The translations under genes and the position numbers were made by a program. Positions 10,600 to 52,565 of a stretch of DNA of 64,000 nt are shown here, piece by piece. Source of the stretch: Escherichia coli (lineage in GTDB: Bacteria > Pseudomonadota > Gammaproteobacteria > Enterobacterales > Enterobacteriaceae); the NCBI RefSeq assembly GCF_003019035.1, contig NZ_CP027447.1; one strand, written 5' to 3'. Within the stretch, counting starts at the first letter, position 1, and each line of letters begins with the position of its first letter. Under the pieces are notes generated by a model that was not told where the DNA came from, did not search any database, and saw only the letters and a program-made list of their open reading frames with translations.

Positions 10600-10660
10600 T
10601 TGATGATGTGATCCTAATCTCTTCAGGTACGCTACCGCCCTTGGCTTAACAGCTACCAAT
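10600..10660 (-). promoter_or_regulatory. JUMPstart element with ops (5'-GGCGGTAG-3' on the transcribed strand) in the kpsM leader
   Basis: Reverse complement of about 10632-10639 is GGCGGTAG, about 33 bp upstream of the kpsM ATG, embedded in GGTAGCTGTTAAGCCAAGGGCGGTAGCGT. Confidence 0.65.
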
Positions 10661-11637
10661 ACACTGGAGGTAATGCTTATTTGTAACTGGATAAAATTTA
10701 CTCAGACGGTTTGACCTTTTTAATAGCCGCAAAAAATTTCAGCAGAAATTATTTCCGCAGGGATAAATAGATCTATTTCCGTCTCGTTTCTTCTAATCCA
10801 TTCTTCAGGCATGAATGTATTCGGTCTTCTGGTAATTTCAGAAAACTGGCCGTTTTAGAATGTAGAGTTAATTTCTCAGGAAATTATTTTTTGTTCTTAC
10901 TGTTAACTACTTGATTATAATACCCCATATGGATTTTATGCGTAACAATACCTGCAATCTGTTTCAAACCAGAACGCATGCGATTGATTACCAATAAATT
11001 GTTTAGCGAGAAACTATTTCCCTATTTAAAATTCACTCATGTACTTCTTATTTATATCTACAGCACCCTCTTTACAGTCACATTTGTGATTTACATCACA
11101 TTTAAACGGTGTTATTTAAGCCCCATTAATAATTCCGTGAGTAATTATTTTCGTCAATTAAAATATACATCTTGATTATTTTGTGCGTTTATTTTAACCA
11201 GCGTTACAGCCAGCATTATCCCTCAGTAGATATACCTGAGCAGACATTTCTTAAAATCGACGAATAGTTTCCCTGGAAATTATTATGCTTATTTGAAATT
11301 CCCTTTCTGATTATCTCCAGTAATTTTACTAATTTCCAGGCTACACAAAATACAGATCACATAAGAATTATCCTATATGTTTTGACCTATCAATTGTTAC
11401 TCAATGATTTATTACAACTATTAATAATCATAATGTGTCAAAACACTTAAGCATCTTTACAGTCTTAGAAAGGTGTCGATTAACGAAGGCTACATGGTGA
11501 AAAACAGGTTCCTTCAGTGTTACCGAATATTCCGTGGTGGTCTGGAGGGAGATAATTCTTGCTACATCGAAACTCAGCCCGGTGAGCGGGTTTGACAGTT
11601 CCGCACTCACCATTGGGCTAAGGGTTATCAGGTGGGG

Positions 11638-12192
11638 TTAAGGAAATGGCAATACCTCCCCCCGTCCAAACTCCAGTCGCTGCACATTCACCATCCCAGG
11701 CTTCTCAGCAGCACTGACATCAATTTGTGTCACCCGCAGCGCATATTTTTCATCCAGTGCGTTTAACCAGTTCAGCAGGTCATTAAACACCACAGGTTCT
11801 ATCCAGACTTGAATATTCTCCCCTCGCTCGGCTATTCGCTTAATGACCACTGAATGCGCCGAAGCACTGTCGCTGATGACCCGCGATACCTGTGCTGGCG
11901 TTGTCGTGGCGGATTTTCGCGCCGCAATAATATCCGGCGCAGTGCTCTTCAGTCGCGCGTTCATCGCCACGAGCTGCTGCAACATCGTCTCCTGTTGTTC
12001 TATCCGTTCGCTCAACGGCTGCCAGATGAGGACGTAATATCCGGCGCTAAACAGGAACACTACCGCTGCCAGTAACATGCCTTTTTCACGCGGAGAACGT
12101 CCCGCCAGGTGTTGTGTCAGCCAGTGTTCGCCACGGCTTAACTGGCGTTCACGCCATTGCTGAAAATAGTGAATAAATTTATCGCGTAACAT
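11638..12192 (-). CDS. gspM: Type II secretion system protein M
   Basis: 184 aa, single TM segment; last gene of the co-linear gsp operon. Confidence 0.8.
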   Translation of the reverse strand: MLRDKFIHYFQQWRERQLSRGEHWLTQHLAGRSPREKGMLLAAVVFLFSAGYYVLIWQPLSERIEQQETMLQQLVAMNARLKSTAPDIIAARKSATTTPAQVSRVISDSASAHSVVIKRIAERGENIQVWIEPVVFNDLLNWLNALDEKYALRVTQIDVSAAEKPGMVNVQRLEFGRGEVLPFP

Positions 12193-51065: not shown

Positions 51066-52565
51066 TTAAATCAACTGCAATGCTATCCAGTACAACCCAC
51101 CAGAAAGAAAAATCGCCGCCGGTAAAGTAAACACCCACGCCATCAGGATGCTGGTTACCGTTTTACGCTGTAACCCACCGCCGTCCACCACCATCGTCCC
51201 TGCTACCGCAGACGAGAGGACGTGTGTTGTGGAGACGGGCATCCCAATATAACTGGCAAGGCCGATAGACACTGCCGCCGTCATTTGTGCCGCCATGCCT
51301 TGCGCATACGTCATGCCGCGCTTACCAATCTTCTCACCGATGGTCATCGCTACACGACGCCAGCCAATCATGGTGCCGATGCCGAGCGCCAGTGCTACCG
51401 CCATGATGATCCACACCGGTGCGTACTCAATGGTGCTTAACATATCGCTGCGCAGTTTTTTCAGCAGGTTCTGGTCTTCTTTACTGACGCCTGGCAGTTT
51501 CGCCAGCTTCGCGGAGGTATCAGAGATGCACAGCATAATGCGGCGCAGCTGGCTGCGCTGACTCACGCTTAACGGCTCGTAACTTTCCATATTGCCTGGC
51601 AGCATCGTTTTAACGCGCGCAATCGCATCAAAGGTATTTGCCGGATGACAGTGAAACTCTGTTACTTGCGTGCCATCAGTCGATGTCGCAGGCAATGGAG
51701 GTTCCATCGTAATCAACTTCTGCGGCAGTTCAGGATGCTGTTGCAGGTAGTGTTCGAAGTTGGTGACGGCATCGCGGGTACGGGTAATTTCATAGCCGGA
51801 CGCGTTCATATTGACGACGAAGCCAGCAGGGGCAATCCCCACCAGTACCAGCATCACCAGGCCGATCCCTTTCTGCCCGTCGTTCGCGCCGTGCGAAAAC
51901 GCCACGCCCGCAGCGGAAACAATCAGCGCAATACGCGTCCAGAATGGCGGCTTACGTTTGCCTTTTTTCTTTTTGCGATCTTCCGGAATGCGGTGAATAC
52001 GGTCACGCTTTTTCGTCCCGCTCCAGAAACGGCGCAGCAGGAAAATCAGACCACCCGCAATGACCAGGCCGACGATAGGGGAAACAATCAGCGAGGAGAA
52101 AATTTTGGTCACTTCACGCAGGTTTAACGCATCCATCACCGATGAGCCGGTTAACAGCGCGTTGGTTAAACCGATGCCGATAATCGCACCAATCAAGGTA
52201 TGCGAACTGGAGGCCGGTAAACCAAAGAACCACGTTCCCAGGTTCCAGATAATCGCCGCCAGCAGCATGGAAAAGACCATCGCCAGGCCGTGAGTTGACC
52301 CCATATTCAGCAACAAATCGGTTGGCAACATATGGACAATGGCATAGGCAACGCTAAGTCCGCCTAGCAATACGCCAAAAAAGTTAAAAAATGCCGCCAT
52401 CACCACAGCAAGTTGTGGTTGCATGGCACGAGTATAAATAACGGTTGCCACCGCATTCGCCGTGTCATGAAAACCATTGATTGCTTCGTAGAACAACACA
52501 AATGCCAGAGCAAGTAATAACAAAAGCCCTGTGTATATATCAAGGCCAACAAATAAATTTAGCAT
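51066..52565 (-). CDS. pitB: Low-affinity inorganic phosphate transporter
   Basis: 499-aa PiT-family protein; synteny. Confidence 0.9.

Follow-up and report, generated by a model that had tools for sequence, protein, structure and literature searches.

Between the gsp (type II secretion) operon and the first capsule gene of this Escherichia coli chromosome lies about 1 kb of noncoding DNA, and the capsule unit that follows is unusual in that its exporter gene kpsT has been displaced from its place beside kpsM. What does this stretch of DNA do, and does it owe its design to the distance between the two exporter genes? We addressed both questions in a window of 64,000 nucleotides, by which we mean the whole stretch of DNA that was analysed. 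Our reading, in which we have high confidence, is that positions 10600-11658 on the minus strand form the regulatory region of the region-3/region-2 unit of a group 2 kps locus, made up of the promoter PR3, a long leader and an ops element at which RfaH is loaded. The elements, their positions and their conservation were observed in the window, while for the transcription start, protein binding and RfaH dependence we rely on published work on leaders 95-96% identical to this one.

Along its minus strand, the window passes from the gsp operon into the group 2 capsule (kps) locus. The gap between kpsM and yghD (gspM) measures 1,038 nt and has a GC content of 35.5%, as compared to 55.6% for the gsp operon and 49.2% for the window as a whole. 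It contains no conserved open reading frame, in line with the earlier note, which had described about 1 kb of AT-rich noncoding DNA extending to the gspM stop. The gsp genes lie on the same strand as the leader and the kps unit. At the usual yghD stop, TAG (11658-11656), the window reads GAG, which adds six codons to the gene and moves its stop to 11638. Homology between K-12 and the window ends at this usual stop codon, and the capsule leader is absent from K-12. Judged by where the homology ends, the usual yghD stop is the junction between core DNA and capsule island; 10600-11658 (minus strand) is the right-hand end of the island, abutting the yghD/gspM stop. Strain SCU-301, which shares the window's leader at 100% identity and departs from the window in region 2 by only 2 nt, showed both the convergent region 1 (kpsFEDUCS), which lies beyond the window, and the placement of the island from the pheV side to yghD.

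Close to kpsM, the leader carries the ops octamer GGCGGTAG at 10639-10632, on the minus strand and hence on the sense (non-template) strand of kpsM. The kpsM ATG occupies 10599-10597, so that 32 nt separate it from the octamer and 28 nt from the 12-nt ops sequence GGCGGTAGCGTA, the same distance as published for the kps ops (PMC8960920). The bare octamer is not significant (1.2 matches would be expected in the window, and three occur), and position 12 of the ops sequence departs from the K-12 consensus; both points would suit a chance match or a decayed, non-functional relic. We consider such an explanation extremely improbable in view of the element as a whole. A covariance-model search with the JUMPstart family (RF01707; gathering score, 35) returned a match at 10666-10628 that scored 58.5 bits, covered model positions 1-38 of 38, had E-values of 3.4e-12 (local search) and 7.2e-11 (whole window), and was the sole JUMPstart match in the 64 kb. 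The element is almost invariant in six divergent leaders, one of them only ~80% identical overall, is identical to that of K5, and is two bases away from the CFT073 element, which is occupied by RfaH in vivo (PMC9765446). It lies ~700 nt past the aligned PR3 start and is followed by ~10 kb of genes on the same strand. The claim that an ops octamer precedes kpsM within a JUMPstart-like sequence was thereby confirmed. The two further octamers, at 51395 and 58470, were rejected as ops sites, both falling within long open reading frames and lacking a JUMPstart context.

Positions 11-12 of the ops element read TA in all seven kps leaders compared, that of the window included. Validated K-12 ops targets carry TG there, with G12 promoting the pause (PMC5995543). 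With A at position 12, pausing may be weaker; this base is, as far as the aligned leaders tell, a feature of the kps subgroup, and the kps ops of CFT073, which likewise has A at position 12, still recruits RfaH (PMC9765446). The ribosome-binding site of kpsM appears weak and distant, as would fit RfaH-assisted ribosome recruitment (PMC5995543). The predicted RNA fold between JUMPstart and ATG is no more stable than that of shuffled sequences (z = 0.02), and we therefore do not claim that the ribosome-binding site is sequestered. Compared with other RfaH-dependent operons (RF01707; rfa/waa, rfb, hly, tra), the window shares a full-length match to the JUMPstart model and an GGCGGTAG that sits on the non-template strand ahead of an envelope operon that is long, AT-rich and of horizontal origin. 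Unlike in those operons, ops here follows an unusually long leader of ~700 nt—yet stands 28 nt from the start codon—and, in the kps leaders examined, has A for G at position 12.

Leaders of this kind are common. Of the 5,426 complete E. coli genomes, 1,699 contained a match, and in 1,594 the match spanned at least 80% of the leader's length, for the most part at 90-100% identity. Alignment with known kpsM leaders, a check that the earlier note had suggested, gave 95.8% identity to K5 strain ABU 83972 and 95% to CFT073. Over the 1,060 nt aligned with ABU 83972 (identified as K5 by kfiA, kfiC and kfiD), the two leaders differed by 44 substitutions and one gap of 1 nt; no difference fell in the final 75 nt, which include the stretch from JUMPstart to ATG. 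Given this near-identity, published K5 features can be transferred to the window by position. The distances of the -10 hexamer and of ops from kpsM agree with those published for K5 (Stevens et al. 1997; Xue et al. 2009; reviewed in PMC8960920); unlike in K5, kpsM is followed by glycosyltransferase genes instead of kpsT, and one base of the P2 -10 element differs.

The CFT073 leader, which is also that of ATCC 25922, differs from the window by a 116-bp indel and is otherwise 95% identical, with three substitutions between JUMPstart and ATG, two of which fall in the JUMPstart element. The kps leader adjoins yghD in CFT073 as it does in the window, whereas CFT073 has the long form of the leader (+116 bp) and kpsT adjacent to kpsM. 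ATCC 25922/CFT073, O17_K12a and JJ1887 share the long form, in which two copies of a 21-bp repeat enclose 116 additional bases; JJ1887 also has a 10-nt insert just downstream of the indel. The window and K5 ABU 83972 have the short form. ChIP-seq in CFT073 mapped RfaH, H-NS/StpA, sigma-70 and RNA polymerase (PMC9765446). There, H-NS/StpA cover the operon, RfaH is detected from the kps ops onward, and deletion of rfaH causes RNA polymerase occupancy 5.4 kb downstream to collapse (PMC9765446). RfaH dependence of distal genes has also been cited for K5 (PMC8960920). Both RfaH recruitment and a long leader, as proposed in the earlier note, are thus documented for near-identical sequences.

Turning to the promoter, the K5 start at PR3 lies 741 nt ahead of kpsM, and the promoter has a -10 but lacks a -35 element (PMC8960920); the '714 bp' given in one paper (PMC5738388) we take to be a misprint of 741. 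A start 7 nt past the hexamer TATTTT would lie 741 nt from the kpsM ATG in the window and 742 nt in K5, and alignment with ABU 83972 places the putative start at about 11340. The hexamer is consistent with the '-13G' P1 mutation of enteroaggregative strain EAEC 042 (PMC12360894). GATAAT at 11372-11367 was rejected as the -10 element, as it implies a start at ~761 nt, in conflict with the published 741 and with the -13/+245 numbering. Our consensus scan overlooked PR3 because this promoter has no -35 element. Base composition is uneven along the region, with 33.9% GC at 10600-11340, 27.9% at 11341-11480 and 48.9% at 11481-11658, and the predicted upstream H-NS/SlyA footprint falls in the most AT-rich of these parts. 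The '1-kb untranslated region' of the earlier note is therefore to be divided: ~741 nt would be 5' UTR, while the other ~300 nt comprise the promoter, upstream DNA predicted to bind H-NS/SlyA, and the GC-richer hairpin segment past yghD.

Table 1. Features of the kps regulatory region and its surroundings, by position in the window.
Feature	Position	Strand	Basis or remark
yghD (gspM), final gene of the gsp operon	11638-12192	-	NCBIfam PRK09731, 407.7 bits
Island junction, usual yghD stop	11658-11656	-	End of K-12 homology
GC-richer segment, 48.9%	11658-11481	-	Composition
Stable hairpin just past yghD	11573-11622	-	-28.8 kcal/mol, z = -2.9
Very AT-rich promoter-upstream DNA	about 11480-11341	-	27.9% GC
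Upstream H-NS/SlyA footprint (-135 to -21), predicted, approximate	11361-11475		PMC8960920, positions moved by distance
PR3/P1 -10 hexamer TATTTT, preceded by TG	11347-11352	-	Block 11346-11357 invariant in six leaders
5' untranslated leader of the kpsM transcript, ~741 nt, predicted	10600-11340	-	Published K5 start moved by alignment
Downstream H-NS footprint (+141 to +219), predicted, approximate	11122-11200		PMC8960920, distance from the putative start
Predicted CRP site TGTGATGTAAATCACA, both half-sites consensus	11085-11100		Sole TGTGA-N6-TCACA in the window
P2 -10 position: TGTAAA in the window, TATAAA in EAEC 042 and K5	11089-11095	-	Leader alignments
21-bp repeat AAATAATTTCCTGAGAAATTA, single copy, marking the 116-bp indel (short form)	10869-10889	-	Leader alignment
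Weak terminator-like hairpin and T-run, inside the UTR	10742-10758	-	Consensus scan
JUMPstart, including a second GGTAGC and the UUGGU...GCCAA hairpin	10628-10666	-	Rfam RF01707
ops element GGCGGTAGCGTA, RfaH loading/pause site	10628-10639	-	Sequence; 28 nt from ATG
Weak Shine-Dalgarno-like AGGA	10612-10615	-	Read from sequence; 12 nt before the kpsM ATG
kpsM, capsule ABC-transporter permease, first gene of the unit	9823-10599	-	258 aa
Region-2 genes	331-9722	-	Same strand; 33.8% GC
Displaced kpsT, ABC-transporter ATPase	1172-1840	-	222 aa; 76% identical to canonical KpsT

Within the leader, the palindrome TGTGA-N6-TCACA occurs where a CRP site would be expected from published work. It was found once in the window against 0.09 expected, its centre lies 493.5 nt upstream of the kpsM ATG, and its half-sites are invariant across leaders, the spacer being variable. 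In EAEC 042, ChIP-seq and gel shift (EMSA) located a CRP site at -492.5, and CRP lowers kpsM expression (PMC12360894); a second promoter in that strain, P2, has its -10 hexamer, TATAAA, inside the CRP site (PMC12360894). The window resembles EAEC 042 in its consensus CRP half-sites, which lie equally far from kpsM, and in the placement of the P1 hexamer, and is unlike it in that the hexamer inside the CRP site reads TGTAAA instead of TATAAA. A G at 11094 thus replaces the A at position 2 of the P2 hexamer, a site that is polymorphic among leaders. From coordinate arithmetic, which assumes that -13 and +245 both mark hexamer position 2 (of P1 and P2, respectively), we infer this G to be the published P2-inactivating '245G' change (PMC12360894). 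P2 is probably inactive in the window, and the published two-promoter scheme may here reduce to a single promoter.

We regard it as very unlikely that the 1 kb has a product of its own (small protein or small RNA) or is the relic of a decayed gene, even though it holds two small open reading frames, of 61 aa (11613-11428, minus strand) and 65 aa (10978-11175, plus strand). Stops, frameshifts or lost starts break both frames in divergent leaders, neither has a Pfam match, and we do not count them as genes. The segment at 11481-11658 is, by its GC content, a possible gene remnant, and the predicted fold of the UTR is more stable than all of 20 shuffles (z = -2.8), both of which would suit such a reading; on the other side, no RefSeq annotation lies under the leader among the matches listed, and an Rfam search of the leader at E <= 1 returned nothing beyond JUMPstart. 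A purely regulatory region remains the preferred reading.

Two hairpins were considered in their own right. A terminator function for the hairpin inside the UTR is not supported: its T-run is interrupted in ATCC 25922, O17_K12a and JJ1887, and consensus scans of the leader for terminators and promoters gave counts at or below those of shuffled controls. The hairpin just past yghD was matched in stability by none of its shuffles. It lacks a U-tract, making it non-canonical as an intrinsic terminator, and its GGTGAGTG/CACTCACC stem is retained in the otherwise divergent leader of O17_K12a. Possibly, this hairpin forms the 3' end of the gsp transcript or acts as an insulator, limiting read-through from gsp into the leader.

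We then compared the capsule unit itself to its canonical counterparts. The window's KpsM shares 97% amino acid identity with KpsM of CFT073/ATCC 25922, and kpsM is found at 92-99% nucleotide identity in ~1,600 genomes. A score of 189.6 against the NCBIfam KpsM model, below its cut-off of 300, could suggest a divergent kpsM, a notion ruled out by the 97% identity to canonical KpsM; rather, the model seems to under-score E. coli KpsM. In the genomes viewed, RefSeq labels kpsM genes merely as 'ABC transporter permease'. The canonical adjacency of kpsM and kpsT, with its ATGA overlap, is missing from the window: homology to canonical loci stops exactly at the old kpsT start, of which an ATGATT remnant follows kpsM. 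The gene order after kpsM is glycosyltransferase, CgeB-like gene, wecB, wecC, a glycosyltransferase of 920 aa, kpsT and a family-A glycosyltransferase, so that five region-2 genes separate kpsM from kpsT and their starts lie 8.76 kb apart. The window's KpsT is 78-80% identical to other displaced KpsTs and 72-76% identical to canonical ones.

This split layout is rare. The junction of kpsM with a glycosyltransferase gene was present in 54 of the 5,426 complete genomes, and the window's version of the kpsT end in five; the split loci of TUM14759 and LR-58-2 carry displaced KpsTs of their own. A phrase search of the papers available and the K-locus catalogue yielded no description of a split kpsM...kpsT arrangement. 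The KL112 locus (PMC13171598; bioRxiv 10.64898/2025.12.15.689991) is, like that of the window, atypical with respect to the order kpsFEDUCS/region 2/kpsMT. In KL112, however, kpsM and kpsT remain a pair, which is inverted and has lost both PR3 and ops, whereas in the window kpsT alone has moved and PR3, ops and kpsM occupy their usual places.

Is the leader, then, a specific adaptation for reaching the displaced kpsT? The earlier note had pointed to an unusual need to read through about 9 kb. The distance is real, kpsT being truly distal, and a search of the whole window with both the octamer and RF01707 detected neither a second JUMPstart nor a second ops in leader context in region 2; nor did an alignment of three split loci reveal a conserved block upstream of the displaced kpsT. 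The fit of the leader to that distance, in contrast, did not stand. From JUMPstart to ATG, the sequence is identical in K5 ABU 83972 and differs by three bases in CFT073, in both of which kpsT overlaps kpsM, and the JUMPstart elements of the split loci of TUM14759 and LR-58-2 showed no distinctive differences on alignment. Some 1,540 of the 1,594 leader-bearing genomes lack the split layout, canonical units are of similar length (~9.3 kb in K5, as compared to ~10.3 kb in the window), and RfaH dependence has been described for canonical loci (PMC8960920, PMC9765446). We hold a specific adaptation to be very improbable. Since K5 and CFT073 carry the same element ahead of units of similar length, ops belongs to group 2 loci in general and is not a response to the split layout. 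The displaced kpsT is, on these comparisons, a property of the window's K locus and not of its leader.

In another reading, kpsT and the last glycosyltransferase gene are expressed mainly from an internal promoter in one of the AT-rich gaps (1841-2035 or 8361-8729), which would free kpsT from its need for read-through from PR3. These gaps are long, with 369 bp at ~23% GC at 8361-8729 and 195 bp before kpsT, and AT-rich DNA bound by H-NS often harbours cryptic promoters (PMC9765446). A near-consensus TTTACA-18-TATAAT does occur at 1153-1124, though downstream of kpsT. Promoter-like matches in region 2 nevertheless numbered 41 against 48.5 expected from shuffles, the DNA before kpsT is not conserved among the three split loci, all genes lie on one strand, and terminator signals did not exceed chance. 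We therefore judge a dominant internal promoter unlikely, if less so than the alternatives above, and favour expression of the whole unit from the leader; the distal kpsT would then be expected to be no less dependent on RfaH than the biosynthetic genes.

Taken together, the window's elements and the work on homologous leaders suggest the following course of events. Transcription would start at PR3 (P1), ~741 nt before kpsM, from a -10 hexamer without a -35. H-NS together with SlyA would bind the AT-rich DNA that flanks the start and keep the unit off at low temperature; in homologous leaders, the two proteins silence PR3 at low temperature and shape its activity at 37 degrees C. A CRP site ~250 nt into the leader would damp expression. 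RNA polymerase would traverse the long leader without RfaH, and in homologous leaders the long leader limits the transcription that reaches kpsM. At ops, within JUMPstart, the polymerase would pause and the non-template strand recruit RfaH, which at such sites recognises a small hairpin formed by that strand (PMC5995543; for kps in CFT073, PMC9765446). RfaH would then stay with the polymerase, countering Rho- and H-NS-dependent loss of transcription, and help ribosomes to load onto the weak ribosome-binding site of kpsM. As an outcome, the entire AT-rich unit of ~10 kb would be expressed.

A further consequence is conceivable, and we put it forward tentatively, as a possibility to which we give less than even weight. 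With kpsT moved to the far end of an RfaH-dependent unit, the two halves of the exporter would sit at different points of the polarity gradient, export, in addition to synthesis, would become highly sensitive to RfaH, H-NS and Rho, and the G in P2 would leave PR3/P1 as the sole entry for transcription.

The leader itself is already known: it is present in ~30% of complete E. coli genomes and has been characterised in detail since 1997. The rare split kpsM...kpsT layout provides an only mildly new angle. The leader matters biologically as the switch that controls a major virulence factor in extraintestinal E. coli. The usable outcome of this analysis is an annotation that sets PR3/P1, the H-NS footprints, CRP, P2, JUMPstart/ops and the island junction at exact coordinates. 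The natural variants—the split kpsM...kpsT, the P2 base change and the 116-bp leader indel—offer ready-made experiments on this switch.

The kpsM leader carries a G for A at position 2 of the −10 hexamer (TATAAA) of P2, the second kpsM promoter published for EAEC 042, within the CRP site. This base is polymorphic, being G in the window, in ATCC 25922/CFT073 and in LR-58-2, and A in K5 ABU 83972, TUM14759 and O17_K12a. The G probably corresponds to the experimental P2-null mutation. A second single-base feature concerns the RfaH loading site ops: whereas K-12 RfaH targets have G at ops position 12, forming a pause-inducing TG, all kps leaders compared have A.

Features of the kps leader, the split locus and the remaining window (window positions unless marked L003, the locus giving coordinates for the long form of the leader indel).
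Feature	Position	Strand
kpsM/kpsT split, five region-2 genes between	1172-10599	
AT-rich gap	8361-8729	
33-codon ORF	9725-9826	
kpsM	9823-10599	-
ops position 12	10628	-
116-bp leader indel, bounded by a 21-bp direct repeat	10869-10890; L003 about 9790-9930	
P2 −10 hexamer, position 2	11094	
11-bp inverted repeat	11272-11340	
Hairpin 3' of yghD	11573-11622	
yghD/gspM stop change	11656-11658	
Small RNA C0719	30360-30581	+

In its untranslated region, the leader exists in a short form (the window and K5) and a long form, differing by the repeat-bounded indel. The extra sequence of the long form contains CCAGAACGCATGC, whose reverse complement, GCATGCGTTCTGG, lies about 140 nt further upstream; judging from this complementarity, the long-form leader could form a long-range stem without counterpart in the short form. 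Beginning at the inferred transcription start, the perfect inverted repeat CCTGGAAATTA ... TAATTTCCAGG makes up the first hairpin in the predicted UTR fold; in the JJ1887 version, one change is compensatory and two of the end pairs are disrupted.

Where K-12-like core DNA gives way to the capsule island, GAG replaces the usual yghD/gspM stop codon TAG, giving a product of 184 aa as opposed to 178 aa. Directly 3' of yghD lies a stable hairpin whose stem, GGTGAGTG/CACTCACC, is retained in the O17_K12a leader despite quite different surroundings, which hints at a function, perhaps in gsp 3'-end formation.

The kpsM/kpsT split has its breakpoint precisely at the former start codon of kpsT. The resulting kpsM-to-glycosyltransferase junction is common to 54 of 5,426 complete genomes, and the kpsT end seen here occurs in only five genomes. 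Displaced KpsTs share 72-76% identity with canonical KpsTs, as against 88-92% among the latter. From the old kpsT ATG, overlapping the kpsM stop, runs a 33-codon ORF that ends 2 nt ahead of the next glycosyltransferase gene's ATG; it may be a remnant, one that could couple translation. Between the first glycosyltransferase gene and a CgeB-like gene lies an unusually long, AT-rich gap (369 bp, about 23% GC), which may be the join between two modules or a region with an internal promoter. Elsewhere in the window, C0719 gave a full-length Rfam match (297.6 bits).

Although KpsM itself is canonical, it scored only 189.6 bits with the NCBIfam 'KpsM' equivalog model (cut-off 300), and its RefSeq label in the genomes viewed is just 'ABC transporter permease'; the model thus under-calls E. 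coli group 2 KpsM.
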